A DNA stretch of 63,923 nt, filler included, from Lenisia limosa (GCA_001655205.1; 14 parts of 14 records of this genome joined end to end with filler, not necessarily neighbours in it); one strand, 5' to 3'; positions 13 through 59,300 are shown, counted from the first letter of the whole stretch. The notes: generated by a model not told the origin, from the letters alone. Program-made: numbers and translations.

Positions 13-1372
13 CCCAGCCCCGGGCCCTACTGCGCTTTAGCCATGCCGTGCCGTACCTTCATGCTGCCGGCCGGCGCGACATCATCATTTCACTCCTCCA
101 AGCCTTTTCGATTAGTACGCCGCCGGGAAGGGTTATGTTAAGCATAGGGCTTCACTTCAGTTCGAAAAAAAGACTGAATTTATCGTTCCAGTCAACACTC
201 CCCTTGCCAAGCCCCTCGTTTCTCAGCTCAACGCGAGCGTCCAAACAATGGACACACTGTTTACTCCCCCAATTAACAGCTATTCGGTGGGGGGGGGGGT
301 GCTTTTCGATATGGTGGGACTCTGAGTNNNNNNNNNNNNNNNNNNNNNNNNNNNNNNNNNNNNNNNNNNNNNNNNNNNNNNNNNNNNNNNNNNNNNNNNN
401 NNNNNNNNNNNNNNNNNNNNGACTGATTTGCTCTCTGATTTACCTAATTAAACAGGTCAAAACTTATCCCAGTCCTTGTATGTGTTACATCCCCCTTACC
501 CACCCGTAGATGCCCGACGACCTGCTCTCGACGCTCCAGTCGATACACAAATCGCGTAGCATGGCTGGAATCCTCACGTTTGCAAGGTCGGTTGAGGTTA
601 TCAACCCTATGTTATCACCCAACAGAGTTGATTTGGGCTTTTTTTTGTTTCATCAATTTTCCAATTTTACGAGTATCCACTAATGATAATTGGCTTTGTT
701 TGTTCTGTTGTCTCTTTCCCAAATGCTTAGCCAACATTCTTGTTTTTTCTATCATAAATTTTCCATTTTACCACGGGATGCGGTGCTTTTGTTTGTTTTG
801 TTGCTATCAACCCTATTGTATTATCAGCCAACAGAGTTGATTATGGGCTTTTTTTTGTGTCATAAATTTCCCATTTCACCCTCCAGGATATCCACCAACG
901 AAAGCCCTGAAGTTTTGTTCTCCACTAGCCCTTGGGCCCTCTTCCACCCCGACTCCAAAAAAGTGGGCTTTCCGTGAGACTTGGCCCTGCCTTTTCATAA
1001 TTTCGCATTCTCTCGGAAGATCTTTTTATCATTTCTCATTTCTAAGAGGAATTTTTTTTTATTTTTTCGTATTCTCTTTTAGCATTGTCTGTGAGGATCT
1101 TTTCATATTTTCGCATTTTCTCTTGGAACATTCATACACAACATATTTTGCAAGTATGATAGATATTATATATCCAAAATCCATCAGTTCCAGGTTGTAT
1201 GATGTCAGGTTGTATGATGTCAGGTTGTATGATGTGACTAAATATGATATCCAAAATCCATCACGAACTATATAGGTCTTCCAGATTCCGCCCTCCAGCC
1301 TCCTGCCATCAAAGCTGCCTGCGTCCTTGAGTCACGTGACCGAGTTGGAACTGGACCGTCTTTGTGCCGAAG
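13..1372 (+). CDS. Fragment of a spliced gene, unknown product
   Basis: GC-richer open segments bounded by AG/GT at about 13-121, 509-590, 887-975 and 1286-1372. No recognisable motif. Confidence 0.5.
596..886 (+). repeat. Family B intron-3'-end element, three stacked copies
   Basis: Three head-to-tail units of ...tcaaccct..tcagccaacagagttgatttgggctttttttgtttcataaattttcc.... The last ends cccatttcaccctccAG, directly before an open exon. Confidence 0.85.
1191..1235 (+). repeat. 15-bp tandem repeat (caggttgtatgatgt) x3
   Basis: Three perfect units, flanked by a 17-nt direct repeat atatccaaaatccatca (1170-1186, 1247-1263). Confidence 0.95.
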
Positions 1373-1620
1373 TAGGGGAGAGGGTTGCGCTTTTGCTTTT
1401 TTGCTTTTTCGTTGAGAGACCGTTCGAGGACACGAATTTTACGTAAATTTACATTAAAATTGTAGCGTTCGCATTCGGATTCTCAAAAATTTTACTTAAA
1501 TTTAGAATTTTTAATTACCTCCTCTTGAGTAAGTACTTAAAAAATGTAAAATTTTATAAAAAAAAAAATACACGCAAATTTAAGTAACTTTAAAAATTTT
1601 ACGTGAATTTGCGTTTATGT

Positions 1621-1720
1621 NNNNNNNNNNNNNNNNNNNNNNNNNNNNNNNNNNNNNNNNNNNNTTAATTAATTAANNNNNNNNNNNNNNNNNNNNNNNN
1701 NNNNNNNNNNNNNNNNNNNN
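1621..1720. other. Artificial contig linker (44N + TTAATTAATTAA + 44N); first of 13
   Basis: The same 100-nt spacer with stops in all six frames recurs at 1621, 6485, 13203, 16053, 23382, 27911, 33065, 34942, 49424, 52216, 54318, 56215 and 62225. Adjacency across linkers is not biological. Confidence 0.98.
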
Positions 1721-1748
1721 AAATTTCCTTCGTTTACCCTCCCCCGAC

Positions 1749-4700
1749 CTTAAGAAGAAGAGCCTTGACCTGTCCGTCGAAGGAGGTGGGAGGAGCACGT
1801 TGATGGTTACAGAGAATTGCGACTTGTTTGTTGGACTCCTCGTACCTGAAGAAGGTATAATTGATAATTTAAGGAACAGAATCAACTTTGTTCATTGCAT
1901 TAGAGAAGGTTGAAAACAACAAAACAAACCAGACGGGGGGGGGGGGGNNNNNNNNNNNNNNNNNNNNNNNNNNNNNNNNNNNNNNNNNNNNNNNNNNNNN
2001 NNNNNNNNNNNNNNNNNNNNNNNNNNNNNNNNNNNNNNNNNNNNNNNNNNNNNTGTACCGGTCTTTTCCTTATGGAAGCCCTAATTATGAGTATTGAACA
2101 ATGTTAGATAAGGCCTCTTCGTACCAGCTCAAAAGACGAGCCTCCACCTCAGTGTCGTGGATTCGCGGATAGTCCGGATCTTCAGCAAGGCCTATGATAG
2201 TGATGATGATGGTGATGGATGTGATGGTGATGGTTGTAATGATGATGATGATGACGATGGTGTTAATGGTGATAATGACGATGTTGATAATGGTGGGGAT
2301 GATGATGATTGGTGATAATGATGGCGACGATGATAATGATAATGATGATGATGATGATCCCCTTTATTCAATCATATCCCTCATCATCTTTTCCCCAACC
2401 GCAACAGTCCCCCCACCTTCTTCAATCATAGCCATACTACTTGAGAGGGTTGTTTGCACCCCTGCGCTGCTCTTATCGTTCTTCTCAATTGTAGCAATTT
2501 CAGCATCAGTGTTACCCTAGGGGGAGGGGGGGTAAAATGGAGTGACGAAACAACAACAACAAAAAAACAAGCACAAAACCAATGGTGATGGGGGGAATTT
2601 ATGAAACAAAAAGCCCAAATCAACTCTGTTGACTGACAACAGACGAGGGTTGAGAACAACAAAACAAACAAAGCCCAAGCCAGTCGCTTCTNNNNNNNNN
2701 NNNNNNNNNNNNNNNNNNNNNNNNNNNNNNNNNNNNNNNNNNNNNNNAGGGAAGGAGAGGGGTATGTTGCCAATTTGTGAAAACAAAGCAAAAAAGCTTG
2801 GGAAAGCTTAGGAAGCTAAGGAAAGCTAACAAAGCAAAAAAGCTTAGGAAAGCTTGGGGTTTTTTTTTAAAAAAAAACAATTAAACTCGGCTTCTTATGA
2901 ACGGAATGGGAATACCTCCCACCATCGTTTAAAAAATGAATAACTCCCCATATTACCACCCACTATCACTTCGGTTAGAAAAAGACTGAATTTCCCGATC
3001 AATCCTAGAAACCTAAAAAATATTTGACGGTCTTTGTCGGACCGAAGTGAAGCCCTACATACGACCCCCACAAAAGACTGATAACGATAAAATATCAACA
3101 TTTATCGAGATATTCAGTCTTTTTTTGAAGCGAAGTGCCGCCCAACTCCCCATCCTACCAAAACTCTCTGAAGAGTCATAGAGGCGTTGCAAGTACGGAA
3201 CACCTTAGCTGACAGGCCGGGCATCAGAGTTTTCAGGTAGTTGTTAAGGGCGGAGACCTGGGGTATTAAGACTGGTTGTAACTCCAGAATATTATCCCGA
3301 ATATCCGACAAACAAGGTGACGTCATCTTTTCACTACTTATAACTCAAATTTACTACTGTTAACTCAAATGTAACCGTAACCGAGTCATCTTTTTTATCA
3401 ATAATAACTACATTATTTTTGTTTGTTTACAGAGAATCAAAAACACGCAATTCACGCACGTAGATTACTACAGGTTTTGGAATTACTATCTGCTTTAACA
3501 GGAAAACTAAAAAGACGTTTCACTCAAAATNNNNNNNNNNNNNNNNNNNNNNNNNNNNNNNNNNNNNNNNNNNNNNNNNNNNNNNNNNNNNNNNNNNNNN
3601 NNNNNNNNNNNNNNNNNNNNNNNNNNNNNCGAAAAGATCTTCGCTTCCCTTCTTGTTCTTTGTAAAGAGGCTCAGATTCTTGTAGACCTGAAGGGAATAT
3701 GAGAGGGACACCACCATTGTTCCTTCCTTGACTATATTGATGTTCAGACAATATATACTAATCGACACACATATTACACAGAGAGAGACATACTTCTCTC
3801 TCTAGTATCACCCCCCCCCCCCTACNNNNNNNNNNNNNNNNNNNNNNNNNNNNNNNNNNNNNNNNNNNNNNNNNNNNNNNNNNNNNNNNNNNNNNNNNNN
3901 NNNNNNNNNNNNNNNNNNNCAATTTTGTCCTGGTGAAATAATTAAAAACAAAAAAAAGGTAAAATTGGAAAATTAATGAAACAAAAATGCCCAACTCTGT
4001 TGGCTGACAATACACAAGGGTTGCAAACAAAGCCCAGGCCAGACGCTTCTGCAGCACCGAATCCCATGTGAAACGAAGGAAACGTAAAAGAAAATTGGCG
4101 AAAAGGTAAGAATACCCCTAGGGCTTCACTTCGGTTTGAATGACCGGTTTTCTTACAAATCTTCGATAACTTTCGGGTTTTTTTCGAACTGAAGTGAAGC
4201 CCATACCATGACTAATACATCCCCCCACCTTCTCGCCCTCGACCGGCGTGACCGTAGTAGTCAACGTCACATGCTCCACGCGCAACGAGCAGCAACCGAC
4301 AGTATCGGCCTCATCTTCCGACTTCTCGTTTCCGACTCTCAAGGCAAGATGGTCAATGAGGTACATTGCCGTCGCCATCTGGAATGTAAGGTAATGTAAA
4401 ATGTACGATATGTAAGAAAATGTAAGTTATAATGTAAGTTTCAATGTAAATCTATGTATTATGTGAATGTAAGGTGAAACATAAGACCACCAATATATAT
4501 GTATGTACATATAGCAATGAGAGATACAGTAAGGTATTGCCAGGTGCAATGTAACAATACAGCCCAATGTGATAAAACTTAATGAGAATAGAGCTTCACT
4601 TTGGTTCAAAAAAGACTGAATTTCACGATAAATTTTCAAAAATTATCGATATCTACCGGTATTTTTCGAACCGAAGTGAAGCCCTAAGTAAGAAGATGNN

Positions 4701-6160
4701 NNNNNNNNNNNNNNNNNNNNNNNNNNNNNNNNNNNNNNNNNNNNNNNNNNNNNNNNNNNNNNNNNNNNNNNNNNNNNNNNNNNNNNNNNNNNNNNNNNNN
4801 NNNNNNNNNNNNNNNNNNNNNNNNNNNNNNNNNNNNNNNNNNNNNNNNNNNNNNNNNNNNNNNNNNNNNNNNNNNNNNNNNNNNNNNNNNNNNNNNNNNN
4901 NNNNNNNNNNNNNNNNNNNNNNNNNNNNNNAAACAAAGCCCAAGCAATCCAATATGCTTGCCCAGGCAAGTCGCTTCTGTAGCACCGCATCCCATTACGA
5001 TATGAAAGCAATAAAAATTAGTCCTTGTTAATATCAATATCTAACAACAACAGCAACCTCACCATCACCATCATCATAATCGTCATCATCACTATTATCA
5101 TCAACAACAACAGCACCCTCACATCTTCATAATCATCACCAACAACAACACTAAAATCAACAACAATAACAACATCATGATCATCACCACAATCATCATC
5201 ATCAACAAAAACAACACATCATCGTTATTATTATTATATGATCGCCACCAAACCTTCAATCTCCTCGCCTTCTCAAACTTGTCCATGTCGCTTTGTCCCT
5301 TTAGCCGAGAAGCAGCGGAGAAAAACACGTATTTGTGGCCTATATGGGGGCGGGGTAAGGATTGCATTTTATGAAATAAAGAAGCCCAAAATCAACTCTG
5401 TTGGCTGATAACATATGAGGGTTGATAACAGCAAAACAAACAAAGCCCAGNNNNNNNNNNNNNNNNNNNNNNNNNNNNNNNNNNNNNNNNNNNNNNNNNN
5501 NNNNNNNNNNNNNNNNNNNNNNNNNNNNNNNNNNNNNNNNNNNNNNNNNNNNNNNNNNNNNNNNNNNNNNNNNNNNNNNNNNNNNNNNNNNNNNNNNNNN
5601 NNNNNNNNNNNNNNNNNNNNNNNNNNNNNNNNNNNNNNNNCACCACCATCATCACCATCACCATCGTCACCATCAACAACAACTCCCCCCCTTACCGGTC
5701 AAAGGATCCGACCAGCCAGCAATCCAGGTCACGTCAGACTTATGGACGACAGCCTTCCACTTATGCCCGGCTAGGGGCTCGGGAACCTTCTCGTTCTTTC
5801 CAATGTTGATCGTGATGTCCTGGAGGGGGGGTAAACGAAGGAAATTTATAAAACAAATAGAACCCAAATCAACTCTGTTGGCTGATAACACACAAGGGTT
5901 GATAACAACAACAAAACAAACTAAGCCCGAGAGGGGGGGGGGGGNNNNNNNNNNNNNNNNNNNNNNNNNNNNNNNNNNNNNNNNNNNNNNNNNNNNNNNN
6001 NNNNNNNNNNNNNNNNNNNNNNNNNNNNNNNNNNNNNNNNNNNNNNNNNNNNNNNNNNNNNNNNNNNNNNNNNNNNNNNNNNNNNNNNNNNNNNNNNNNN
6101 NNNNNNNNNNNCCACGGCCTCTGAACAGACCAGGAGGCTCCACCTTCGGGTTTCCAACCT
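1749..6160 (-). CDS. TOP1: DNA topoisomerase IB, multi-exon, truncated at both ends
   Basis: Exons give [16 protein letters not shown]; [26 protein letters not shown]; [27 protein letters not shown]; [31 protein letters not shown]; [12 protein letters not shown]; [23 protein letters not shown]; [19 protein letters not shown]. These match eukaryotic Topo IB in order, including catalytic R488, R590 and H632 equivalents. Confidence 0.97.
2195..2358. repeat. Imperfect (GAT/GGT)n microsatellite in a TOP1 intron
   Basis: gatgatgatggtgatg... Similar CAT/CAC/AAC tracts lie at 5040-5235, 5641-5685, 6162-6236 and 17220-17315. Confidence 0.9.
2517..2691 (-). repeat. Family B element (two stacked units) ending at a TOP1 acceptor
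   Basis: The minus strand reads agaagcgactggcttgggctttgtttg...tcaaccctcgtctgttgtcagtcaacagagttgatttgggc...ttttacccccccctccccctAG, followed by exon GNTDAEI. Confidence 0.85.
3930..4065 (-). repeat. Family B element, near full length, at a TOP1 acceptor
   Basis: gggattcggtgctgcagaagcgtctggcctgggctttgtttgcaacccttgtgtattgtcagccaacagagttgggc...atttcaccAG. Further TOP1 copies lie at 1846-1945, 4931-4993, 5340-5449 and 5820-5944. Confidence 0.85.
4591..4684. mobile_element. Family A MITE (A1 subtype), TA-flanked
   Basis: TA|gagcttcactttggttcaaaaaagac...gtatttttcgaaccgaagtgaagccc|TA: ~28-nt terminal inverted repeats, 94 bp long. Other A1 copies or remnants: 147-185, 2966-3055, 4121-4202, 15367-15440, 15945-15965, 16798-16877, 17680-17740, 18000-18093, 18118-18180, 45920-45999. 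Confidence 0.85.
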
Positions 6161-6278
6161 GATTGATGATGGTGATAATGTTGATGATGGTGATAATGTT
6201 GATGATGATGGTGATATTGTTGATGATGATGATGATATACATATATATACAGTACATATATTATATAATTTTATGTAC

Positions 6279-8170: not shown

Positions 8171-8203
<33 letters not shown>

Positions 8204-9330
8204 GCTATATATATATGATATGCTATACATATTTACTATATTGAGCAAACTTATCTGTTCTTGCAATATTAGGAAGTGTACTTACCATATTAGGAACGAA
8301 GCGGTTGCAGTATCTTCGGAAGCGTCCGAGCCACTGACTGTACCCCTCGCCTCTAGTCCAAACCTAGTCCTTGATTCACCAGAAAAACAGAGAAAGTGCC
8401 AGGGATGTTAGTCATATTGCCCTTTCCAACCCAATCTACATAATTATTACATTTACACATCCAAGAGGGTTGCTGAGACGTTTTAAACGCCGAAAACACA
8501 ATTTCCTTCTGTTGCCTTTTATTCATTTCCTCCCCTTAACTTCCCAGAGAACCCATCAAACTCACAAGCCCCTTTCAAAAACGAGGTGCGTGCGGGCCTT
8601 TTGGCACATCATTGTTTGGATCTTTTTTTGAGTTTAATTGAAATTTGTCATTCAATTATCAGATGTATACCTAGTTTTTACATATTAGTACAATACATGA
8701 GCTGTATTGTGAGCTTTTGTCTTAATCAATGAGATCTTTAGCGCTGCGCTTAATAACTTCATCTTACTCTTTACACATCTAGTCGGATCAGCCTTAGAAG
8801 AGACTGTCAAGACTCCCACGTATGCGCCCATGTTCTCTATAAGGCTTTGTTTGTTTTGATTATCAACTTTCTTGTGTTGTGTCAGCCAACAGGGTTGATT
8901 TGGGCTTTTTTGTTTCATGATTTTTCCAATTTTACTCCCCATGTTCTTTATACACCCATGTTCTTCATATTTTTCTATCCCTAGATTGTGCTCAACCCCA
9001 CTCCCACTATTTATTTCTCTTTCCATATTTTTTTGTCATTGTATGCGTAATTGTTTTTGTCTAGTANNNNNNNNNNNNNNNNNNNNNNNNNNNNNNNNNN
9101 NNNNNNNNNNNNNNNNNNNNNNNNNNNNNNNNNNNNNNNNNNNNNNNNNNNNNNNNNNNNNNNNNNNNNNNNNNNNNNNNNNNNNNNNNNNNNNNTTTCA
9201 TAAATTTTCCAGTTTTACTCCCACCCCCCAGTCCCAAAAAAGGAGCACTCCACACCAAGAAAGTAGTGAACCCCGACACTGGAATTTCGCAATACGTTCC
9301 CGTTGTTACGTCCCAGGACATTACTAAGTT
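6585..9330 (+). CDS. Large low-complexity protein (P/K/S-rich exon, then K/E-rich repeat exon), unknown
   Basis: Long open frames at 6585-7207 and 7590-8061 (EEEKRKEIEEEEK repeats), plus small AG/GT-bounded exons to ~9327 (PKKGALHTKKVVNPDTG). Whether all belong to one gene is uncertain. Confidence 0.55.
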
Positions 9331-11516: not shown

Positions 11517-13095
11517 CTATGGGAGGTCCTTGATAGCAAGGAAGTTAGCTCGAATAGCAGCCAGGACGGCCTGAAGCGGCAGCGTCAGTGACGAGTGTGT
11601 GGCTGAGGGGATAGTATCGGGATGCGTGATTCCAAGCCAGCTGAGCACTGTCTCAACCTGTGGCGGAGTAAAAAAAAGAAAAGAAAAGAAAAAATATTGG
11701 AAAATTTATCTCAAATAATAAAAAAAGAGCCCAAAATCAACACGTTGGCTTGAAACACACAACGGTTGGAAACCACAAAACTAAGCCAATTCCATCACTC
11801 CACAAAACAAAGCCAATTCCATCACTCCAGCGTACCTTGGGGGTGAAGTCTCCGAGGACGTCAAGTTGAGGTTCCAGCTCGTACTGTGGGGGTAAAAAGG
11901 ATTATAGATAAATACACTTAAAACAATGCTGAATTAACCCATACTAACCAACCCATTCTGCTCTCCCAAACCATGAAAGACGAAGTATCCATTCGAACCC
12001 GATGTTTTCAACAATCTCAACCCACTCGCTAGCGTTTATTTGATTCCAATGGGATTCTTAACTCTCTTATGGTAAAAATAAACTCTTCCCCCCCCCACCC
12101 CCCATAATATCCCCCAACCTGGAGTCTGTTGTAAATGATCTGAGGCGGTCCGGGTTGTCCTCTCGAGATATCGACGGCATGAGTTGAGAGTGCGGCGCCG
12201 TACACCCGGAACATGTCACTGCGAGGTTAGAGGGGGGAACATGGAAAAGAGGTGTAAATGGACACTTTTCACTGTCCCCTCCCATTTCACCCCCCATACC
12301 TTAGGTAGTTATACAGTGCGATGTTGGTGGTGATGGTTACAGCGCCGTCAAACTCCGAAATGTAATAGTAGTCCACTGTGTTGGACGTTTCTGGCAGGGT
12401 GAGAGTATACATATACATAACAAAGAGAAATAAAAACAATAAGGTTGTATCCGGCCGAAGCCGTCCACACCATCATCTAGTATTATATTAATTCACCCAA
12501 TCATGAGCCTTAAAGCTCTGTGCACTACATATAATATTATAATATGATTCTGGGGGCGGGGGGGNNNNNNNNNNNNNNNNNNNNNNNNNNNNNNNNNNNN
12601 NNNNNNNNNNNNNNNNNNNNNNNNNNNNNNNNNNNNNNNNNNNNNNNNNNNNNNNNNNNNNNNNNNNNNNNNNNNNNNNNNNNNNNNNNNNNNNNNNNNN
12701 NNNNNNNNNNNNNNNNNNNNNNNNTTATTATAAAACACAAAGCACCGCACCCCCATTATTTACTTGTTTCGTATATTACTTTGCCCCCACCAGGCTGGGT
12801 AGTGTACATAACAAGGGAGACTGGCGGGATGTTGAAGATTTGGCTGGCGGCGGCCCGGGACTCGCGCTCGGCCGGGGTGAGGTGTGTGCTACTTCCACCA
12901 TCTAGGGGTGTGAACAAAGGACATATTGAAGAATATACGCGCGAAGGCTCTGAAACCAAATAATCCGAATCTCCAAACAAAGCCATGTACATAGCCCCCC
13001 CCCCCACAGGTCATTTTAGAAATAGCGGCCTTCCCTGAGGTCATGGTCAATTGCCGATGGATGTCAGCACCCTTCAAGTTCTGAGTCAAAGTCAC
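11517..13095 (-). CDS. 3' part of a spliced gene, unknown product
   Basis: Six canonical exons, e.g. YELEPQLDVLGDFTPK|VETVLSWLGITHPD...KDLP*, with TAG at 11517-11519. Confidence 0.7.
11658..11835 (-). repeat. 178-nt intron consisting almost entirely of a family B element
   Basis: GTacgc + tggagtgatggaa + ttggctttgttttg (duplicated)...ccaaccgttgtgtgtttcaagccaacgtgttgattttgggctc...gataaattttccaat...tttactccgccacAG. Confidence 0.75.
12415..12530 (-). repeat. Family C unclassified interspersed repeat
   Basis: atgattgggtga...gatggtgtggacggcttcggccggatacaaccttattgtttttatttctc, shared with the other family C copies listed below. Confidence 0.8.
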
Positions 13096-13353: not shown

Positions 13354-14697
13354 CCACATCCACAAACGAAAGTCTCCTCTCCGTCGAACTCGACATTGTC
13401 TCCGGACGTCTTTCGTTATACATGGCACCAAGCCCTGCTGACACGTTCGCCACCACCAATGACAATACCATTGCCGCCTTCACGGAAGAGATCTCGAGCC
13501 TCTTCGGCATATCGAGAGGACGGTCCTACAGTGTTCAGACCGATCAGAGTAATGCGTTTGAAGACAGANNNNNNNNNNNNNNNNNNNNNNNNNNNNNNNN
13601 NNNNNNNNNNNNNNNNNNNNNNNNNNNNNNNNNNNNNNNNNNNNNNNNNNNNNNNNNNNNNNNNNNNNNNNNNNNNNNNNNNNNNNNNNNNNNNNNNNNN
13701 NNNNNNNNNNNNNNNNNNNNNNNNNNNNNNNNNNNNNNNNNNNNNNNNNNNNNNNNNNNNNNNNNNNNNNNNNNNNNNNNNNNNNNNNNNNNNNNNNNNN
13801 NNNNNNNNNNNNNNNNNNNNNNNNNNNNNNNNNNNNNNNNNNNNNNNNNNNNNNNNNTTTACTCCCCTAGGGTCGCGGTCGATTTAAAGCCTGGCGACCT
13901 TCACGAGGCGTCTGGTACCACGTCTGCATCACAATGGCAAAAATAAAGCCCCGTTCAAGCGTCGCCCTAAGTTCCCTGTATATTAATGGGTCACTAATGG
14001 ATCGCGTGCATTTAGCCCACCCCTTCTACCACGGGCCCTCTGTGAATTGGCGCGCCTATCTTGGAGGCAATGTGTATGGTCACACCGCACGTCCCAATGC
14101 AATGGGCGGATGTCTCAATGGCACTTTGGCCTGGAATATGGGACCGCTTTACATCTTCAATGTGGGTGCGGGATTGTACCGTTTTTGATTGAAATGATAT
14201 CATCTTGCTTTGTATCTTTTATTATACTTCATCTCATTTACGCCCTCCCTTAATACCAATATGCTAATTTTTAGTTTGCTTTGTCTTACCATACACTGGA
14301 GTGATAGGATACGGTGTTGCAGACAGAAGCGATTAGCCTGGGCTTTGTTTGTTTTGTTGTTCTCAACCCTCGTGTGTTGTCAGCCAACAGAGTTAATTTG
14401 GGTTTTTTTGTTTCATATATATTTTCCAATTTTACTCCCCCCAGGAGGCTCTGAGTGCCACATCAGCGGGTTATTTGGCCGCGCTTGGCATGGACGTCTC
14501 AGGCCCCTTGCCGCTGGCTAAGAACAAGTGGGGGGAGGGGGTAAGAATAAAATAATTTTGGGTATGTGGGGGTAAAGCTAAAGGTTGTCATTTTTTGGTT
14601 CATTATTTTCATCACAACCATTCTTGCGTCCTTTCATCCAGTACTTTAGGTGGGATTCTTCGGAACCGTCTGCTGCCGAGGAAGATCCGTTCCAGAG
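13354..14697 (+). CDS. BEACH-family (WDFY3/neurobeachin-like) ConA/laminin-G region, fragment
   Basis: Exon GVWYHVCITM...SSLYINGSLMDRVHLAHP...LAWNMGPLYIFN|EALSATSAGYLAALG resembles the W.H...LY.NG...W.lGp.ylf.eaL segment of BEACH proteins. The BEACH domain itself is not seen. Confidence 0.55.
14305..14444 (+). repeat. Family B element, best-preserved copy, forming the intron acceptor
   Basis: ggatacggtgttgcagacagaagcgattagcctgggctttgtttgttttgttgttctcaaccctcgtgtgttgtcagccaacagagttaatttgggtttttttgtttcatatatattttccaattttactccccccAG|gaggct. Other + copies: 8862-8942, 9196-9231, 15536-15620, 17380-17475, 18365-18433, 35858-35975. Confidence 0.9.
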
Positions 14698-16152
14698 TGA
14701 GTGGGGGTGGGGGGATTTGTTGGTCCATTTTGTTGTTATTTGTTTTAAGTGCAAATTGGAATCATGTTTAAGAAATATAAGGGATTAGATCTTTGCTAGG
14801 TGAATTTGAGATGATTATTTGGATAAAAAATATGGACCCCGCCCCTTCCCCTCCCACATTATTACCCTTTAGAATCGAGCGACGACAAGGGCCATCTAAA
14901 CCATGCGTATTTGGACGACGTTACACCCTTGGTTGGTTTTTTTCGTCATAAATTGGAGAAAGTCTCTTGAAACTAGGACTATAGAGATGCAGCGGTTGAC
15001 TACACAAAATTGGGTGACAATGTAATATGCTATTTGAACTTACCTTCCCTTTAAGTGATGAACCTTTGAGTTAACTTGCTTGGGAAATGATTATGTTTTG
15101 TTATTAAACCTTGTAAATTGTACCCAATTCATGTGATGTACTGTTCAAGCTGATCACCTCTTCCATGAAACTTATATCGGTAGATGGCAGCACGCAACAT
15201 TGCGCATCTCAACAGTCGCACCATCTTTGCTACTCTCCCCGCAACCGTTTCCTACTACTCTCCACATCTCTCATCCACTACATCACCGGCTGTCGTGGCC
15301 TTCCCCTCTCTCACCCAGGTTTGTTTGTTCACCCTTATCATATCACTTTTTGGGTCATTTTCCCTAGGGTTTCACTCCGGTTCGATCTGTAAACTATCGA
15401 TAGTTTTCAAGGATTTATCAAGAAATTCAGTCTTTTTTCGATGATATTTGTGTCCACCCGTATATCGTTGTGTATGGGTTAATTGCAGTCCAATTTTAAC
15501 GGATTCATCCCACGGACAGATAATCCGTATTTAATTGTGTGACAGCCAACAGAGTTGATCTTGGGCTTCTTTTTTATTATTATTATTATGTATACTCCCC
15601 CCCCCCCTGCTCATAGATTCCTTGTTTCACAGATTTAGTCTGCCGTTAGTCCTAGAACTTGCCAGCCCCTCCTCTCCCTCTTTTTCGGTATGATTGATCT
15701 ATAGTTATTGTTAAAATTCCAATAAAACAAACATGCTTTCCATTTTGGAGTACCTACATATATTAATCTAATGAAGAGATATATGGCTAAGTTGTAATTC
15801 TTCCGCAGCTTTCATAGAAATGTCTTCTATTTCACAATTGCTTACTATGTTATCTTTCTCACGTGATCAGGCCCTTCCTCCGACACCACCACTTCTGCCC
15901 ACAGCCCTGGTATGCTAGGAGGAGGTTATGATGTACTGGTCATTTTTGAACCGAAGTGAAACCCTAGATACACTTCATCGTTTTTGTTATCTAATGATAG
16001 TTGAAACAGTCTTTTATGTTTAAAGCGATTCGTATTGTATTCTCCCTTTAAANNNNNNNNNNNNNNNNNNNNNNNNNNNNNNNNNNNNNNNNNNNNTTAA
16101 TTAATTAANNNNNNNNNNNNNNNNNNNNNNNNNNNNNNNNNNNNNNNNNNNN

Positions 16153-19384: not shown

Positions 19385-19474
19385 GGGCTTCACTTCGGTT
19401 CAAAAAAAGACTGAATTTCTCGTTGGAAAACTATCGATATTTTTATCGATCTTTTTTGAACTGAAGTAAAGCCC
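19385..19474. mobile_element. Family A MITE (A1)
   Basis: gggcttcacttcggttcaaaaaaagac...gatcttttttgaactgaagtaaagccc. Confidence 0.85.
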
Positions 19475-20273: not shown

Positions 20274-20298
20274 TATGGTCATAAATTATTTTCATTGT

Positions 20299-20485: not shown

Positions 20486-20651
20486 GAGTTTTTACTCCAA
20501 CAAATTTTGTGGACGTGAATTGTTACATTGTTACAAGTATCCAAATGACAATTGGAGTTGATTTTCTAGGTACCTTCGGACTCTGACCTCAATAGATTGT
20601 ACCAACAGAGTTTATCGGGTCAGTTTTATCTGATTATTTTCTAACTTTACA

Positions 20652-22270
20652 GAAATGAGTGAAAATATTGACGAGGCTGAAGATATTAAATCTGATGCAT
20701 TTGATGTTATTGATGCTGGTTGGTCTGATAACATTTCACAATATATACATATAGCAATGAGAAATAAAATAAAATAAGGTTGTATCTGGCCGAAGCCATT
20801 TACGCCATCACGCTTAGAAGAGATATTAGATTATAATATAATATTAACACACCCAATCATTTGCCTTATTACCATTTGACAATATAGCAAGACTTGCGGA
20901 AATTTGGAGAAGCTTCTTTCTATTTGTTGTTGTCATTGTGACTCTTAGCCTTTTGGGACTTGCAGTTTTGGCGCTTTTACTAAATTTGAGATGGCTTGCA
21001 ATTTTGTGAGGACAATTGTATTCACAATTATCATTCAGGGTCACACTTGCGTTTTTTGTTTTAGTTGTCAGTTGTTGGGTCATATACGCAGGTCACAGGG
21101 CTGCAGTGTTTATCATCGCGGTATGGTCATTGAATAGCTAACATTTAGGACTCATGTGTGGAACTTATCGATTTTTCTTCCGGAAATGGAACCGACAAAA
21201 TCACAAAGCTCATTGAATGTCTTGATGAAGACTCTTGTGAGCTTTCCCCTCCTCTCACGGCTAAAGTCGACACTCTCGTTCAGTTTACAGATCTTTTGGT
21301 TGACTTTATAAATGTGCTTGCAGATTTTGAAACTGATGCTGAGAAAGAGGCAGAATTGCGTAGCGATGTTTGCCATTGCTAGCGATGACTTTTTAGTCCG
21401 CTTTGTACCAGAAAAACTCAAATAAAGCAGTAGAATTGGGCACTTGTGTGTCTTTCAGGAAAAGCGTTGGAGATATTGTTGATGACTACTGCAAAGAGCC
21501 AGTAATGTTGGTTTTACTCTCATGGTTGTTATTTCATTTCCACAGGGGCAATTGTGACGACTTACAGGAGGAATTTGTTGGTTACAGTACTATTTATTAA
21601 CCACATAACTAAATAGTTCATTGTGGCCATGTTACTGTCAATTTCTTATGTGACGTTGATTTTCAGTAAGGAAGGGGAAACAATTACAGTTTAATTTAAA
21701 GGCTTGGATTACCAAAGTTCGGTTAATCGCGGTGAGGATGGTCCGACACCAGCAGATAGAGGAGATAATGTCAGCGTTGTTAAAGATTGTGTGCAAACTA
21801 ACAAACCTGCAGAAGCCGTCCCACTCAGTAATCGCTGCTGTTGACCAGCATTTCTCTCCATCCAGTTCACCCTTCTCTGAACGCCGTAGGCATCTGATTT
21901 CTTCTTACCTGGTAGCTGGCCCTAGTGCTCTAAACGAACAACAACCTGGTACTGTTCCTGTCTATGATGACTCTGGTTCGGTTGTCGTCAACTTGTCACC
22001 ACAGCAGATAAGGTGATAATCTTCATTCTCTCACCTTATAGCCAAAGCCGGTCGTTTGAACCAACAAATCAACGAAATGATGTTGGTATGTACTGCATTA
22101 TTTGTGTTCTTTGTCATATTTTTAGGTGTAACAAGACCATCAGGTTGGCAGAAACCACTTTCACCGTTATCTCATGATTTTGACTCTCTAGGAGCGCGTA
22201 GGAAGGCACCACCTCAACCAGATATACCTCCAAGTTTGTCTTATTCTCTACTACACTACACTGCACATTG
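20652..22270 (+). CDS. Probable spliced gene, unknown product
   Basis: AG/GT-bounded open segments, e.g. EMSENIDEAEDIKSDAFDVIDA, 21150-21300 and 21732-22013. No motif recognised. Confidence 0.45.
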
Positions 22271-47717: not shown

Positions 47718-49423
47718 ATGGTGAGTCTGGACCATGCTCAAGAAATTCGAGCCAAAGTTGATTGTTTTTTTTTAAGAAATTAATGCAGAAAATTGATTTG
47801 TATCTGCCCGTTTTTTTTATATAAAAAAAACACATCATACTATATACTCCCAGGTTTATTTGAGACTTGTTATTAGGAGCTTTTTTGTTTGGTTCTTTTC
47901 CCAGATACCTACATTCTCATGATACATAACCCCTATGTATAACCCATCAATGCATAACCACCCCAGACATTCCATCATCAATACGCGAACGCGCAGTGGC
48001 AAAGGCGCGCGCGCCACTCGTTGACGACAAGCAGAAAATGCTGCTTCTTATGAGGTGGCCAGGGGTGTTTTGACACTTGTCGGAAGAGCCCCTTACCCCA
48101 CTCGTGTTATATTCGCCCCCCCCCCCTCCTCTCGATACTAACCCGTATTAGATCTATCAGCTGCTTGCTGTCAAAATCATCAAAAATCGAGTGGCTCGAC
48201 CTCGAGGGTCTTCCGTTCACTGTGGGGGGGGGGNNNNNNNNNNNNNNNNNNNNNNNNNNNNNNNNNNNNNNNNNNNNNNNNNNNNNNNNNNNNNNNNNNN
48301 NNNNNNNNNNNNNNNNNNNNNNNNNNNNNNNNNNNNNNNNNNNCGGTGCCAAAGTGAAACCCTGGTGGCAACCGATACTGTCTCTTATATCTCTTATTTC
48401 TCTTAATATATCTCTTATGCCTCTTATGTCTCTTATGCCTCTTATATCTCTGATATCTCTTCTGTCACTCACTTCCCTTACCATATAGACTGCCGGAGCC
48501 TCTGCGTTATCGAAGGGCCTCTGCGAGAACAAAACCCTCATTAAAGTTTCGCTCAAGGCCAGTCATCTGGTTGACAAAACGGTGGATAGTTGGAGGGGTG
48601 TCCCTTGATATTATTGGTTATTCTGTGTTATGGCTTGTCTTGGAAGATGGGTTATTCTTTGTTATGGCTTGTTATGGANNNNNNNNNNNNNNNNNNNNNN
48701 NNNNNNNNNNNNNNNNNNNNNNNNNNNNNNNNNNNNNNNNNNNNNNNNNNNNNNNNNNNNNNNNNNNNNNNNNNNNNNNNNNNNNNNNNNNNNNNNNNNN
48801 NNNNNNNNNNNNNNNNNNNNNNNNNNNNNNNNNNNNNNNNNNNNNNNNNNNNNNNNNNNNNNNNNNNNNNNNNNNNNNNNNNNNNNNNNNNNNNNNNNNN
48901 NNNNNNNNNNNNNNNNNNNNNNNNNNNNNNNNNNNNNNNNNNNNNNNNNNNNNNNNNNNNNNNNNNNNNNNNGGACTACACTGAAGTGTCCGACCAGTCC
49001 GCCTACGGAATTGCCAGTCTTTTGCAGGTGAGGGGCATGGAATTAATAGAGTGGTCCAGGGAGGCATGATCTGCTCTTGTATAAATGGACGGCTTCGTAC
49101 ACAACGTTGTTTTTTTTCTCTCATTGCTAGAAACATAGTATATTATGATATATATTAATGTAATATTTCCCTCCAACACGCCAACATTCTTCATAGAAAT
49201 TTCCGTCGTTTCCCTAATCCCCTCCCCCAGTGGCACGTAATGCGTCGCCACACAGAGCGATGGGAGTCCACCCTCCGCGGCCGGAAGGTTCAAGATAAGC
49301 CCATTGCCCACACCGGGCTTCTGTCACTGTCTCTGGCACACACGCATGTCGGTGACGAAACCGCTGTTCAGATGGCAGCTGCATTGCGTGACGATCTTTG
49401 GATCGACCGTATGGGGGAGAGAT
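47718..49423 (+). CDS. CEP78: Centrosomal LRR protein CEP78-like, 3'-truncated
   Basis: M|TFHHQY...; LSKGLCENKTLIKVSL; AYGIASLLQ|WHVMRRHTERWESTLRGR...LSLAHTHVGDETAVQMAAALRDDLWID resembles CEP78 MRRHEETWAESLRYR...DLWL. Confidence 0.75.
48378..48462. repeat. 9-bp imperfect tandem repeat (tctcttatr) in a CEP78 intron
   Basis: It produces the spurious RDIRGIRDI ORF on the minus strand. Confidence 0.85.
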
Positions 49424-49523: not shown

Positions 49524-52215
49524 GTCGGCCTTGGCCTGCGCGTTGAGTGCGACACTACACGCGTCTTGCGCCTCAGCAGCGGCGGCGAGGGCCTCGTCTG
49601 CTTCCTTACGCATGGCGCTCATGTGGCTGTGGAATTCAGCTTCCTGGAGGGGGTGAAGATTGTCCTGAGGTGTTTATATGATACTTGACCTGTTCAAATA
49701 CAATGGGCTTTTTACATGTGATACACATCAGAAATATCGAAAATGAATCGTAATATATCTTAGACTAGAAGATTTGTTCCGCCCTTTACTGTTAAAACTT
49801 GTTATGACCCCCCCCCCCCCNNNNNNNNNNNNNNNNNNNNNNNNNNNNNNNNNNNNNNNNNNNNNNNNNNNNNNNNNNNNNNNNNNNNNNNNNNNNNNNN
49901 NNNNNNNNNNNNNNNNNNNNNNNNNNNNNNCGATCCGAAATGAAGCCCCGCCAGCAACATCCCACAAACCTTTTCAGCAAGGGTTTGCTCGGCAATAAGC
50001 TGTTTCTTCTCCGCCGCAGCGAGCTGAGTGCGGGCCTCCTCAGCGACCTTTTTGGCCTCTTCGGCTTCCTAATATGGTAAGTTACGAATGGGTTCCTAAT
50101 AAGGTTTGATGATTGATTGCATATTTCTCCTTAAACTGATGATTTTCCAAAAATGATCAACTATGATGCTAAAACGGTACCTTGCTCTTTTTATTGACCA
50201 TAGGGAAGCACCTAATGACATCCCATTCATTCTGTACAGTGACCGGGAATAAGGCTTGACCGATTTGCTGCGTGATTTCCCAAGGAAAATAGATCAAGAC
50301 TAATCTCGGTCATATCATATGATATGTACTATCTTCTGCCCACCTTCTCAGCCTTCTCTGCTCTGTCCTGGGCGTTCTTCATCTGTTCTTCAGCCTCGGA
50401 CTGGGCGGCCTGAGCGGCTTCCGACTCGTTTCGCATGATCTCGCAAGTCATCATGGCCTCCCTGAAGATGGTAAGTTGATGGTAAGTTCCTAGTAAGTTC
50501 CTGTTGCTTTTTTTATTGTGGTTGTTTGGATATTTTTAGAGTTGTACCAAAATTAACATTTGAGTTTTATTCCGACATAGTTATATGATGGACGATAATA
50601 TATCATATATACATAGCTATACGTATTATCTACACTGACCATGATAAGTCTGAAACAATTTTCCTGGTCATTGAGCGATTTTCCTATGATGTACAATATG
50701 TATGTAGCTAGCTATGGACATACAGTTACATACATATTGATACAGTATTATATCAATAAGCCACACGGACTTGGCCTGGTTGAGTGCGTGTTTTGAGGCT
50801 GACTCGGCCTCAGCTTCGCGGGTCTTAGCAGCCAACAGGTCTGTAGTAGTATCGGCTAGCTTCTCCTGAGTCTCGGCCAACTATATGGAGTTTGGGAAGT
50901 AAAATGGGAAAATTTATGAAATAAAAAAAACCCAAATCAACTCTGTTGGCTGANNNNNNNNNNNNNNNNNNNNNNNNNNNNNNNNNNNNNNNNNNNNNNN
51001 NNNNNNNNNNNNNNNNNNNNNNNNNNNNNNNNNNNNNNNNNNNNNNNNNNNNNNNNNNNNNNNNNNNNNNNNNNNNNNNNNNNNNNNNNNNNNNNNNNNN
51101 NNNNNNNNNNNNNNNNNNNNNNNNNNNNNNNNNNNNNNNNNNNNNNNNNNNNNNNNNNNNNNNNNNNNNNNNNNNNCGGGCTTCGAGTTCGGCAGCCTTG
51201 TCCATCACAACCTGGAGTGTTATATATTGGCCAGTGTTACTACACCACGGCCTGTATAGTTCATTAATATACCCCACTGAATTGACCGTTGCATACTTTC
51301 AGTGTTAATTTGATTATGTAATCATTCCCTTATTCCTTCACTGGGTGCCTGTATATTGCCATAATTTTTGTTATCCTACATGGCCCCCCAGATTGTTTTT
51401 TGTTATCTCACAGCAAAGTAACAACAGAAGAAACGTAAGATCTTTTTTGCGATGATTTTGATCTTCAAGGTACTGAAAGCCGTTTTCATACACAATATAT
51501 AGGGCTTCCCTTCGGTCCCAAAAAAAAAGATTGGATTTCTCGATAAATCCTCGATAAATATCAATATTTTACCGACCCTTTCGGACCGAAGGGAAGCCCT
51601 AACTGGATGTAGAGGAGTTACCCCAATGAACACCCAACCTCCATAGCGGCTTCAGCAGCAAGTGCAGCCTCGGCTGCGGAATTGCGCTCCTCAACCGCCT
51701 ATTATGGTGAGCGGTGGCTAAAAATGGTTGCTCGTCACAAATTTTATCGATTTCGACCATATTCGCTTGTGTTACATATTACATGTACATGTTTACATGA
51801 TTGGGTTGATTAGTATGCTGGGAGGCACGCAGAAAGCTGTGTGCACAGCGTTGTAAGGCAAAATAATATTATACTATAATCCAATATCTCGTGTAAGCGT
51901 GATGGACGGCTTCGGCCAGATGTAACTTTATTGTAGTTCTCATCTCTACATACCACTATATTATACAGTGACTGAGATAAGTCTTGACCTCTTTTCCTTG
52001 AGAAAGCACACAAATCGGTCAAGACTTATCCCGGTCACTGTATATATGGTAAGACCGTTTCAAAACCCCATAAGGAAAGTCATCCCCCCAACCTGGGCAC
52101 ACTCCTCCTTGGCCATCCTGAGCTGTTGCGAGGCCTCCTCGACTTGGGCGTCTGCCTGGTCCGCCATCATCTCCGCAGCCATAGCCGTCTCCTCCGCGGC
52201 CTGCGGGGGGGGGGG
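49524..52215 (-). CDS. Ala/Glu-rich coiled-coil protein fragment
   Basis: Several exons, e.g. AETQEKLADTTTDLLAAKTREAEAESASKHALNQAKSV and EAEFHSHMSAMRKEADEALAAAAEAQ. Confidence 0.7.
51966..52040. mobile_element. Family D Tc1/mariner-type MITE
   Basis: TA|CAGTGactgagataagtcttgacc...ggtcaagacttatcccggtCACTG|TA. Other copies: 9440-9510, 37046-37115, 50237-50313, 54433-54508, 59074-59151. Confidence 0.88.
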
Positions 52216-55164: not shown

Positions 55165-55700
55165 TATCCAGTATTTTCAGACTGAAACGGAGCCTTCTCC
55201 CACTTTTTCATCAACTTGTCCATGCCCGGAAGTGACAGAGATGTGAGCTGAAGGGCCTCGAAAGCGTCTGTCATTACCTTGCCGCGGAAGCCGACTGGAT
55301 AGGATAAATATATCATATGATATGTCTTTATGAAAAAAAAACAAAAAACAAACAGTTTTATTGGAAAAGAGTATAGATGATATGATACAGCATGTCGAAA
55401 AGATAAAAAAGAAAATAGCATGCACGCATACGTTTTAAGATATTGAGTAACATTCAAGCACTTGCTATCTACGATTAGTATATATCATATCTGATACTGC
55501 ACACCACAATATAAAATACTATATGATATAGCTATAGAAAAATATAGTATGAGTACACAAAATATCACACGTAACATTGAAACACCCACTCTTAATGCCA
55601 TGCCGGATGATGTTGAGGATGGACTCAATGAGGTCCCGGGTAACCCCATGATAATGTGTTGCAGGCTGCGGTGCCGACAAGAAGTAGGCTGGGGAGGTAA
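55165..55700 (-). CDS. Exon fragments, unknown product
   Basis: GC-richer open segments: YHGVTRDLIESILNIIRHGIKS and GFRGKVMTDAFEALQLTS... Confidence 0.45.
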
Positions 55701-56329
55701 GGCAGATAATTAAATAACAAAAAAAATTCAATGTAAAGAGGGGTAATCGAAACGGGGTACATTTACGAACAAACAAAGCCCAAAATATAGAGGAGTATCT
55801 GGCAAGAACCATCATTTTTGAGAGTTTAATATCAACTCACAGAAAGGCAAAAGGTAAAGATTTTCGAAAATGGTTAGCCGTAAACGCAAAGGTTGAGATA
55901 TCAATACGAATGAAGAAAAAGAATATAAAAAAACCAAGATACGGCCGGTGAAATATTAACCATTCAGCGCTTTATTCGTTCAGTACACCCTGAGAATGTA
56001 CTTTTGTACTAGCTGTGAGGATTTAAAAAGGAAATAAATAATAAAGAGTAAATATAAACGATTATATCCAGTGTATATAATTATATAAAGGGGTCAGGAC
56101 AAATGGGGGTGAGACTGGTAGCTCATAATAGTACACACCACGGGAGAGAAGAATCATCATACCTGAGACTCAGGAGTTCTGGATTTGAAGAAAAGCGCTC
56201 ATCATGAAAAACAANNNNNNNNNNNNNNNNNNNNNNNNNNNNNNNNNNNNNNNNNNNNTTAATTAATTAANNNNNNNNNNNNNNNNNNNNNNNNNNNNNN
56301 NNNNNNNNNNNNNNGGAAAACGGCATAAA

Positions 56330-59300
56330 GTTGAACATTTTGTCTGTTTGATCCAATTCATCATGTTGAAAGGGGGCTGAGTTGTTAAAAATAGGAGGCA
56401 TATTTGGTTTCCTGTGACTGTTACTCTGCATGTGTAACAATCAGTGCTATTCTGCCAGATTATTGACTCATCGTTGGCAGCAATAAACTTCGCAAACTTA
56501 GCATTAAGCAGTCTCAAAAGAGACCCCACCTACCTAAAATAATCCATATTCTCGCCTATTAAAAAAACTATCCGAAAAATGTCCATTATCACCCTACTGA
56601 AAACATCGAGAGGAAGGCAACGAGCGGATTCAATTAGTGTTAAACCTTCACACCCTCCCAAGTAATCTGTGACGTGACGTGGGGAAGAGTGAGTGAGCTG
56701 GAAATGAACTATTATATATGACCTGACCTGCATTTGCATTTTGCATATACTCTCTCAAAGTACTATTATGATATGATATAGTAAATTGTAGAAACTCTAT
56801 TATATCATGATCTAAGCATTGAATAGCTTTCATAACAGCTCCCACCAGAGAATATTTCTCGATAGCGGTCAGAGGGCTGGCTGGTGATCAGCCAAATAAA
56901 GATATTAATGATGAACCCGATGACTCCGGTCTAATTCGGTCAGGGTGAAGAAATAGAGAGTTTACTTAGGTATGATTTGGTCAGTACCACAACTAAAGTG
57001 AAGTAAAGAAATCGAGAGAAAAAGAAGAATAACAAGACAAAAGAGCACAGAACACAGATTATGATAGCAAAGTTTATGTTATTGTAGCTCCAAACAAATA
57101 TTTCAGGGGGGGAGGGGGTCTTCTTTGCTTGTGTTAGGTTCTTTGATAGGTTTTGTTTGGAGGATTGTTATCTGTATCCTTGTCAACCCAACTTACGATA
57201 GCAGTTCCAACAAATCTATGCCAAACTGGACCGTCGTTATTGGCTGCAAATAGGCCCCCGTAGAAGATTATACTGTAGATCATGAACACTAAAATGGTAA
57301 AACTCTAGGTCTGTGGAAGTTGATAGTGCTTGCGTGATGTATTTTGGAGTCGAAATGATGAGACAATGTGTGTCCAGCTCTAGCTATTCAAAGGTGACAC
57401 GATCATATATTATATAGTATAGTCAAAGCTCTGGAAATCATTCAAAATTCACCAGACGCACTAAAACTCCCGGACAGTTTTCCATATAAATCATCATAAA
57501 CCCTCTTTCCCTTTTGTTTTCGAAGTAATTTCAATCTTAATCAAAGGATAAAACGCCTACTTCATATATTGTCGGGTCAAAACCAAATTAAGTCCTTAAG
57601 CTCTCTATTTACGGTCCAAATACTGTCAAAAACACGCAAAACCGTTATAAAAGGCCACATTCAAAGAATAAATCGCACAGTGCCTTTTGAGCATTTTTCT
57701 CTCAAATTCACCATTACATTATCAACGCAAAGGGGAACCCGGAACCAAATACTCCGAGGGGTGCAAATTTTTGTTTCTTAACACTAAAAGAGGGTAAGAT
57801 TCAGAAAAAAATCCTGTGAAAAGNNNNNNNNNNCACGGACTTTTGATATTTGCTCCAAATTGAAAAAAAAAGTCGGGGAATATTAGGAGGTCCATTTCTC
57901 TATGTCTGTCGAAGCAGTTTTTTAAAAAACACTAACATTGGCCTATACAAGGTGTCAACTTCAAGCTGTCCGGGAGTTTTGATGTGTCCGGTGAATTTTG
58001 AATGATGTCCGGAGCTTTGAGGACATAATATATACATATATACATATATATTATATCGATATAAAATAATATCATATGTAGAGTAATTTTTACAGATGTA
58101 CTTATAATATTAATATATGTAGTACGTCAACCCAAAATTATATACCTATGAACGTAAAAGTCTGACATATCTATGTACTATCCCCAGAGATGCCCGAATT
58201 GAATAGATAAGCCAATCGTACAGTAGCCGTAGAAACCAAGGTGGGTATAGGCTCCGGGGACCTTGTCAAGGTTGTCTCTTCTTGAAGGTGAAAAACTAGT
58301 ACAAAAATCAACAAGAAAACATGGATCAAAATATGATATGATACTCAAACTGGTCATAATGAGCATACACAAATTGATCCGCCATATTTGGAACCGCTCC
58401 GCTCACGTCCTCGAAAATGGAAATCTAAATGGAAATCAGGAGGCAAGCTGAAACTAGAATTGATTTTTAAAAAAAAATTTAAATAGAAAGCATAATTTTT
58501 TTTTCCTGGCTAGAGTATCCCAACAGTATCAGATTTAGGCTGTCACACCATGAAAATTGAGCCTGGTTCCTAATTGCATCCATAGTCCACAATAAGCCAC
58601 GCCCAATACATGATTTTTGCCCCCATTCCCCCCTCCTGAGAAATAAAAAAAAGCACGATTTATGGCAGTTTTTGTCAAATAATATNNNNNNNNNNNNNNN
58701 NNNNNNNNNNNNNNNNNNNNNNNNNNNNNNNNNNNNNNNNNNNNNNNNNNNNNNNNNNNNNACAACAGTGAACCCGCCGTCTGTAGTGTTCAGCCGCACA
58801 TCTTTGACCTAACGGGGATAGGGTGAAAAATAGAAACTAATGAAATAAAACCCCACAATTAGAGATATTGGCAGAGCATTTGCGAAACACCCAAGAGTTG
58901 AAAACAACAAAACAAACAAAGCCAAGTCCAGTCGCTTCAACAGGCGGGAGGGGGGTAGGCGGCTTAAGAAATATCAAAAAAAAAATACAGTTGAGGGTAG
59001 GAGGAATATTATTCAGCCGTCTATTAGAACTGAACGGGAAGTTCGCCACTCGAGCTTTGGTTTCGCTTACATACAGAGACCGAGATAAGTCTTGACCGAT
59101 TTTCCTGAGGAAATCATACAGCAAATCGGTCAAGACTTATCCTGGTCCCTGTATATCAATGAGAAAAAAAAAAGTTGTAGCCGAAGCTTAAGAGATATTG
59201 ACATCGATATTTTACCGGTCCTTTTCGGACCGTAGGGAAGCCCTGCATAATAGCCCAGGAAGGCCCGCTCACATAATACATTGGCTCCTGGATGGGAACT

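Follow-up and report, generated by a model that had tools for sequence, protein, structure and literature searches.

How can one short repeat come to stand, again and again, at the same end of introns in different genes of a single organism? This question is raised by a stretch of DNA from Lenisia limosa (GCA_001655205.1). The window, that is, the whole stretch that was analysed, is 63,923 nucleotides (nt) long and consists of 14 contigs of an intron-rich eukaryote joined by spacers, with 57,938 nt of non-N sequence. An earlier account made from the letters alone (the sequence-only reading) had described a dispersed element tied to 3' splice sites, and this description was borne out by tests of orientation and position, by four acceptors confirmed with RNA, and by contigs from outside the window. 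The repeat is a high-copy, non-coding sequence of about 140 nt that lies in sense orientation at the 3' ends of introns and provides their acceptor region. In our judgement, the chances are about even that it is a non-autonomous, C-tailed retroposon landing on the C-runs of acceptors, with its orientation fixed by selection and possibly by the use of intron RNA as a template. Its mobility may be coupled to splicing.

The reality of the family was examined with a profile, as the sequence-only reading had proposed. The profile was built on 13 window copies and returned 38 matches in the window at E<10, of which 27 reached the copy threshold of at least 10 bits; 14 of the 27 were not seeds. All 27 lie above the maxima of both nulls, namely 5.4 bits in the reversed window and 7.9 bits in 10 local shuffles. 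They are spread over 11 of the 14 contigs at a density of one per 2.1 kb of non-N sequence; the dispersal claimed earlier therefore stands, but not the numbers given with it (about 20 loci on 10 contigs). Four extra partial copies (9196+, 12765-, 2583- and 49178+) were recognized by eye or with a model of the 3' end. A 21-nt terminal motif was matched 10 times, every time inside copies, where 0.02 matches would be expected. The window sequence is contained in two sequencing runs of one study, X1 (DNA-like) and X2 (polyA RNA), and an assembly artefact was rejected: in the pieces listed, the DNA contigs and the window differ by 0 letters, an RNA contig passes over the copies, and the family is present again in another record (G001). 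DNA depth is 24-30 on single-copy pieces versus 57,000-137,000 on bins that hold the repeat, and this depth, which is itself not a copy number, suggests that there are thousands of copies in the genome. Pattern scans for the repeat in metagenome contigs and viral contigs gave no match. A subfamily with a different internal stretch (..CAAATGC..) was seen at 691-773 and 58942-58813 and in an RNA loose end at 23923, and CTGGAG begins three other copies.

For the comparison with gene structure, 71 complete GT..AG introns were annotated in the window, 20 carrying the repeat and 51 element-free. RNA backs the introns of TOP1 and ARPC4, and the others were set by frame and motif. The host strand is given by RNA or Pfam for 10 copies (TOP1, kinesin and PDE) and elsewhere by hand annotation of element-free introns and open frames. 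The copies, with strand and source of evidence, are as follows.

587-886, +: a 300-nt intron, nearly all of it three head-to-tail copies (592-671, 691-773, 775-886), the last giving the AG (profile; hand-annotated intron).
1721-1748, +: antisense 3' terminus, the first 28 nt of a TOP1 intron, donor 1748 (RNA exon edge and loose end; by eye, unscored by the profile).
1846-1931, -: 5'-truncated copy after a C-run, ending at RNA-confirmed acceptor 1846; intron 2124-1846 has a 7-nt repeat across both junctions (profile, RNA).
2517-2691, -: copy 2691-2584 and a degenerate second module giving RNA-confirmed acceptor 2517 (profile, RNA).
3930-4067, -: near full-length copy after an older terminus, with a branch-like A 30 nt before AG 3930 (profile; exon mostly in an N gap).
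4931-4998, -: 5' half of a full-length copy, entering an N gap that hides the next exon (profile, DNA and RNA contigs).
5340-5450, -: copy ending at RNA-confirmed acceptor 5340 (profile, RNA).
5820-5928, -: 5'-truncated copy directly after a C-run, ending at RNA-confirmed acceptor 5820 (profile, RNA).
8826-8953, +: copy 8843-8941 in mid-intron, between 15-nt direct repeats that start CCC and differ at one position (flank scoring).
9196-9231, +: 3' terminus at the acceptor of the intron that holds copy 8843, the remainder in an N gap (3'-end model or eye).
11658-11835, -: 178-nt intron consisting of repeat except for its first five bases and preceded by an exon with a C-run at its end; a candidate for an intron made by the element (profile).
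12725-12765, -: 5' part of a copy close to a donor; a family A repeat separates it from the acceptor in use, about 170 nt away (by eye).
14296-14444, +: fullest copy, the last 149 nt of a 279-nt intron (profile).
15538-15616, +: 5'-truncated copy at an acceptor (profile).
17353-17475, +: a tandem of two truncated copies, preceded by an older C-run and reaching the acceptor (profile).
18365-18433, +: truncated copy before a weakly annotated acceptor (profile).
20602-20652, +: an 83-nt intron with a weak copy (10.6 bits) at its acceptor (profile).
23766-23807, -: 42-nt GT..AG piece from the 3' part of the repeat, with an exact CCCCCAGG on each side, in frame within coding sequence; candidate new intron (sequence).
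23845-23954, -: 5'-truncated copy that begins immediately behind an older branch site with its C-run and reaches the acceptor (profile).
25073-25203, -: diverged copy with a branch-like A 38 nt before the AG (profile).
31657-31782, -: diverged copy at an acceptor (profile).
33434-33617, -: kinesin intron with a tandem of two copies, the second beginning right behind the C-tail of the first and giving the AG (profile, Pfam host).
34760-34818, -: weak copy (11.1 bits), about 60 nt upstream of the AG that is probably used (profile).
35861-35965, +: copy in a PDE intron, with the used AG 35996 outside the copy (profile, Pfam host).
49178-49230, +: degenerate 3' terminus at an acceptor (by eye; under the profile threshold).
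50881-50953, -: copy at an acceptor, its 5' part in an N gap (profile).
58809-58942, -: copy that begins immediately behind an older branch site with its C-run and reaches the acceptor (profile).

The orientation of these copies is uniform. All 27 are sense to their annotated host (P 1.5e-8), as had been claimed for every copy save the inverted terminus at 1721-1748, which occupies the start of its TOP1 intron exactly at the RNA-supported donor. The copies in hosts fixed by RNA or Pfam are likewise all sense (10/10, P 0.002), and counting per intron with the antisense terminus included gives 25 sense to 1 (P 8e-7). The host strands called secure at the outset held for TOP1, kinesin and PDE; no ARMC3 host was confirmed. 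As a control, family A, a non-palindromic repeat, shows 6 sense and 3 antisense copies (Fisher P 0.012 versus 27:0). A hairpin family, presumably the family C whose occurrence in both orientations had been set against the repeat, scores on both strands and is therefore a poor control of orientation.

The position of the copies is similarly restricted. The branch-like A of the last copy lies no more than 40 nt from the AG in 17 of the 20 repeat introns, where 5.1 would be expected (P 8e-10). The placement at or just before acceptors thus holds for these 17 and not for four copies, whose branch-like A is 296 nt (8843), about 170 nt (12765), 45 nt (35861) or about 60 nt (34818) from the used AG. 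RNA evidence on the AG actually used, which the sequence-only reading had named as a check, places four TOP1 acceptors at copy ends: in one RNA contig, exons start directly after the copy ends 5820, 5340 and 1846, and acceptor 2517 is confirmed via the degenerate second module of its copy. Four other TOP1 acceptors and four ARPC4 introns are without the repeat. The acceptor signature first proposed, TTTAC followed by a C-tract and AG, is only partly a property of the repeat, because the C-run is associated with it (14/20 repeat acceptors versus 7/51 element-free ones), whereas the branch-like motif is generic to the host, with YYHAY within the last 30 nt of 47 of the 51 element-free introns. 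Repeat introns are longer than the others (median 288 nt versus 132 nt).

Several observations concern the splice sites of the host in general. Donors with GT and a G-run, mirroring the C-run of acceptors, occur in 29 of the 71 introns (e.g., 287+, 3825-, 12299-, 14528+, 16775+, 34584-), and in element-free introns the G count of the donor correlates with the C count of the acceptor (rho 0.39, P 0.005). Pairing of the two ends specific to each intron was unsupported in 64 introns (own -9.65 versus permuted -9.25 kcal/mol, P 0.17). Many assembly gaps are located at G/C runs of donors or acceptors. Intron 25514-25073 (-) contains a C-rich stretch with AG and then GT at 25257, 50 nt upstream of the repeat, which from its letters may possibly be a recursive splice site or a leftover acceptor. 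At 32070-32148, an acceptor-like stretch (a C-run on the gene strand) lies in a 38-nt tandem duplication just before an acceptor.

The repeat can be followed beyond the window. A pattern scan led to copies on small eukaryote-like contigs within the bacterial record G001; these intron-bearing contigs (C39, C43, C67 and C69) are probably contamination of the bin. They have other repeat families in common with the window and no unique sequence in common in the compared parts. On the four contigs (23,759 nt), the window profile found 8 copies of at least 10 bits in a single orientation per contig. This density is biased, since it was by means of the repeat that three of these contigs had been located. 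Two further contigs of the record, C49 and C54, yielded no copy. Seven of the 8 copies are sense to hand-annotated hosts (P 0.016), four of them ending at their own AG before an open exon, one lying about 43 nt and one, by our reading, about 90 nt from the AG, and one being an upstream tandem copy. Besides the repeat, DDE_1 transposase-like frames were seen at L019:234-1109 (-) (Pfam E 1.4e-5) and L003:1250-1950 (by eye), at least one of them apparently intron-bearing, and at L019:4060-5480 (+) a DnaJ gene has introns of seemingly only about 25 nt, unlike the rest of these contigs.

Orientation and position of this kind could also arise if an ordinary small transposon inserted regardless of splice sites and purifying selection left the sense copies at acceptors, where a U-rich body and C-tail make a good 3' splice signal. 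Copies away from acceptors do exist (8843, 12765, C43:1449), the antisense strand of the repeat is A-rich with YAG sites, and short introns seldom carry the repeat (3 of 31 under 150 nt versus 17 of the 40 others). Set against this, repeats of similar size stay mid-intron in both orientations (family A, 6:3), an upstream C-run at 8 of 26 copies indicates a choice of site, and a single copy was found outside a host intron in the roughly 82 kb examined. We regard indiscriminate insertion as the least probable of the explanations considered here.

The anatomy of the copies points to how they may have been made. A full unit runs from GTGATGGG at its start through a branch-like motif and a C-run to AG, and the C-tail that follows the branch-like motif varies in length and is enriched over element-free acceptors. 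The 5' terminus is reached by only 6 of the 26 copies with a visible 5' boundary, the others being truncated to varying extents, and the 5' junctions of the well-kept copies 5928, 8843, 23954 and 33521 are sharp. The 3' ends are kept, even in upstream copies that are unused (592, 691, 8843, 33617). A consensus of loose ends from 70 DNA contigs has the full element starting with GTGATGGG behind pyrimidines rather than behind an exon-end AG, at a weak agreement of 0.53. Copies stand head-to-tail at 592-886, 2691-2517, 17353-17475 and 33617-33434, and 8 of 26 start directly after a C-run, compared with 221 of 8899 intron positions (2.5%; P 1.5e-7). These upstream C-runs belong to older acceptors (23954, 58942, 17353) or to tails of other copies (33521, 2583), and the rest adjoin N gaps (5928, 1931) or end an exon (11830). 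Of the two actions attributed to the element, insertion at 3' splice sites or their replacement, insertion fits better, since the older branch site and C-run, or the older copy tail, usually remains upstream. The direct repeat that flanks copy 8843 is 15 nt long and has 1 mismatch, and the copy's own flank outscores all 21 other flanks; copy 23806 has an exact 8-nt flanking duplication, and both duplications begin with C's.

Target-primed reverse transcription is known for leaving a fixed 3' end, a variable 5' end, a simple tail, copies stacked in tandem and, now and then, long duplications. In a retroposon of this kind, the C-rich tail of the RNA would base-pair, at a nicked C-run, with the G-rich bottom strand, and an enzyme encoded elsewhere would start reverse transcription there. 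An early stop of copying would leave 5'-truncated inserts, sometimes with a target duplication. An insert at an old acceptor, or at the tail of an older copy, would rebuild the branch site, C-run and AG, so that splicing could survive. At an exonic CCCCCAG|G, the duplication could give a donor and the insert an acceptor, and a new intron would result. The strand bias would come from selection against antisense and mid-intron inserts, possibly with excised-intron RNA as the template.

Much the same anatomy (fixed 3' ends, variable 5' ends, C-run microhomology and tandem stacks) is predicted if the repeat is no true transposon and intron ends are copied during repair. A break at a G/C run would let the end invade the C-run of another acceptor, in DNA or pre-mRNA, and copy a variable length upstream, so that whichever intron end is most frequent would spread. 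A duplication is absent from most copies, gaps in the assembly concentrate at G/C runs, a terminus variant is common to 5928, 1721-1748 and the flank of 4067, all in one gene, and direct repeats from staggered breaks have been reported for new introns of Daphnia (PMC4202315). A defined 5' terminus shared by 6 window copies, 3 outside copies and the 70-contig consensus is harder to place in such a scheme, as is the 15-nt duplication at 8843, of the sort that a staggered nick gives; pure conversion should spread unrelated upstream sequence too. Repair-templated copying is in our view unlikely, though it is the main rival.

A different origin would make the copies remains of classic Introners, whole GT..AG units that entered splice junctions by reverse splicing or as a miniature inverted-repeat transposable element (MITE) with short inverted ends and later had their 5' parts lost or buried. 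The full unit does start with GT and end with AG. CTGGAG begins three copies, and its reverse complement is similar to the ACTCC..CAG end; in four full copies an AG overlaps the first G. Micromonas introners and fungal introner-like elements (ILEs) have been reported only co-linear with transcription, and suspected reverse splicing preferred existing intron positions (PMC3443670). However, among the 10 copies with a complete or almost complete 5' end (6 in the window, 4 outside), not one constitutes an entire intron beginning with its own first base; 11835-11658 comes nearest, with a donor taken from 5 nt outside the repeat. The sharp truncation of the well-kept copies and the lack, in 20 of 26, of the 5' end that a MITE needs also tell against decay, which we consider quite improbable. 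A MITE as such was rejected on that lack and on the 27/27 sense orientation, a possible 7-nt inverted match being found only in a subfamily of three copies.

In a few introns the repeat may have gone further than remodelling an acceptor. Introns 11835-11658 and 587-886 are almost wholly repeat. The 42-nt piece at 23807-23766 has a GC content of 36%, compared with 57% and 51% in its flanks. It agrees with copy 592 in 26 of 27 letters and lies between its two CCCCCAGG (an 8-nt junction repeat) in frame and stop-free, so that its removal keeps the frame. It is a candidate for a new intron made by a fragment of the repeat, or it could be an insertion of 14 residues. RNA cover over its gene is zero in run X2, and the single homologue match (E 8e-4; 23 residues aligned), to a thrice-repeated, unrelated-looking protein, was discarded. 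The junction repeats of this piece and of the TOP1 intron 2124-1846 (8 and 7 nt) stand out against a maximum of 5 in the 51 element-free introns; as a general mark of repeat introns, junction repeats are unsupported (P 0.93).

Several points weigh against the retroposon reading. The window's 386 open frames gave no reverse transcriptase or endonuclease, and neither a longer parent element nor an empty site was found. Most copies are without a flanking duplication, and the permutation test for duplications over 22 scoreable copies gave P 0.11 (P 0.06 for scores of at least 7), which falls short of significance because C-runs are common downstream of every copy. Identity between copies has a median of 72% and a maximum of 94% (127 pairs), so the junctions are worn, and the copy boundaries and at least 59 of the 71 introns were set by hand. 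Truncation can be secondary, as in C39:3756, which is split by a 2.3-kb insertion with terminal inverted repeats, and copy C43:1449 is without a downstream exon and lies upstream of an opposite-strand DDE_1 transposase frame. Selection alone would preserve 3' ends at used acceptors. Finally, priming at C-runs cannot by itself explain the strand bias, because the G-rich donors (29/71) offer antisense targets in plenty, yet only one antisense terminus was seen; selection or a template made by splicing must be added. The latter could be carried to its limit in a splice-site-homing retroelement without its own promoter or end-forming signal. The spliceosome would make the 3' end of its RNA (C-run and AG), which would pair with the DNA of other acceptors and be copied in, and only sense copies at used acceptors would reproduce. 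Thousands of acceptors would have been taken over in this way, with new introns sometimes arising from exonic CCCCCAG|G. We hold this fuller scenario to be possible and rather unlikely.

How far the repeat resembles known systems depends on the property considered. The label Introner-like is apt for its action in a few introns and fails on the published criterion of similarity at both splice boundaries (PMC9860276). Working splice sites do come from the element at the four RNA-confirmed TOP1 acceptors, but family similarity that extends through whole introns to both boundaries was not seen in the 20 complete introns. Like the Introners of Micromonas and Aureococcus (PMC9860276, PMC12130899, PMC11282704), the repeat supplies one splice site and the other may come from target duplication; in the 42-nt piece, the donor G would come from the duplication and the acceptor region from the repeat. 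Introners are, however, whole introns alike at both boundaries, whereas this repeat is mostly the 3' part of older introns, as a rule truncated and often in tandem. That it is mainly a 3'-end module of longer introns had been seen correctly from the start: only 3 of 20 introns (587, 11835 and 23807) have the repeat within 5 nt of the donor, each starting at a different point of it, and in the others its start lies 14-575 nt inside. Non-long-terminal-repeat (non-LTR) retrotransposons make up about 5% of classified introners (PMC12130899). With fungal ILEs and sister stwintrons (PMC3443670, PMC8469720), systems known to decay to ordinary introns, the repeat shares co-linearity with transcription, and in stwintrons a new intron is nested in a splice element of an old one (PMC8469720). 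Those elements are complete introns, and stwintrons have inverted ends of 45-55 nt and no flanking duplication, unlike the repeat, which is without long inverted ends.

Like retroposons of the short interspersed element (SINE) type, the repeat is probably non-autonomous and has a fixed 3' end with a simple tail of variable length and variably truncated 5' ends; flanking duplications of 8-15 nt were seen in some copies. Matching of the tail to the target is known from non-LTR elements. The repeat differs in that its tail is a C-run with AG and not A-rich, and in that the copy itself is the acceptor. Copies gave no match in an Rfam search, promoter boxes having been looked for by eye only, and many T-runs on the sense strand do not favour an RNA polymerase III promoter. 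Retroposons of small nucleolar RNAs (snoRNAs) derive from intron RNA and are often sense in introns (PMC1687206). An origin from a snoRNA or another structured RNA was unsupported, with the Rfam result, a fold z of -1.68, a covariation of 0.13 and 1 of 7 pairs double-changed. No published repeat that rebuilds the acceptors of existing introns was found in the literature searched, supplementary files and most journals behind subscription excepted; the tables of species in PMC9860276 and PMC12130899 may be relevant to this.

Other repeats and genes were noted on the same DNA. The hairpin (MITE-like) family is abundant, with 36 profile matches on both strands (e.g., 2966-3056, 4591-4685, 19385-19474, 51502-51600) and weak, below-threshold Rfam matches to microRNA precursors; two further hairpin families were seen by eye (e.g., 22868-22962, 50235-50315). 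Family A, an intronic repeat of about 120 nt, occurs at 12433-12526, 16921-17038 and 51822-51937 and at six more places. The element that splits a repeat copy in record G001 (L018:1416-3755, contig C39) has terminal inverted repeats of at least 56 nt. The exons at 11520-13010 (-) may encode a C-terminus resembling that of BLTP1/KIAA1109-type proteins.

One repeat thus forms the acceptor region in 20 of the 71 annotated introns. It is probably a variant among intron-generating elements that mostly rebuilds the 3' part of older introns. Since Introner surveys demand likeness at both intron ends, such an element would be overlooked by them, and one survey pipeline is designed to exclude secondary insertion into existing introns. 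It has long been an open question whether spliced intron RNA can serve as a template for mobility (PMC3443670); with a high copy number, a fixed 3' end and junctions that can be scored, this can be addressed here in one genome. A repeat of this kind would provide a route for the turnover of splice sites inside old introns and for the lengthening or origin of introns.

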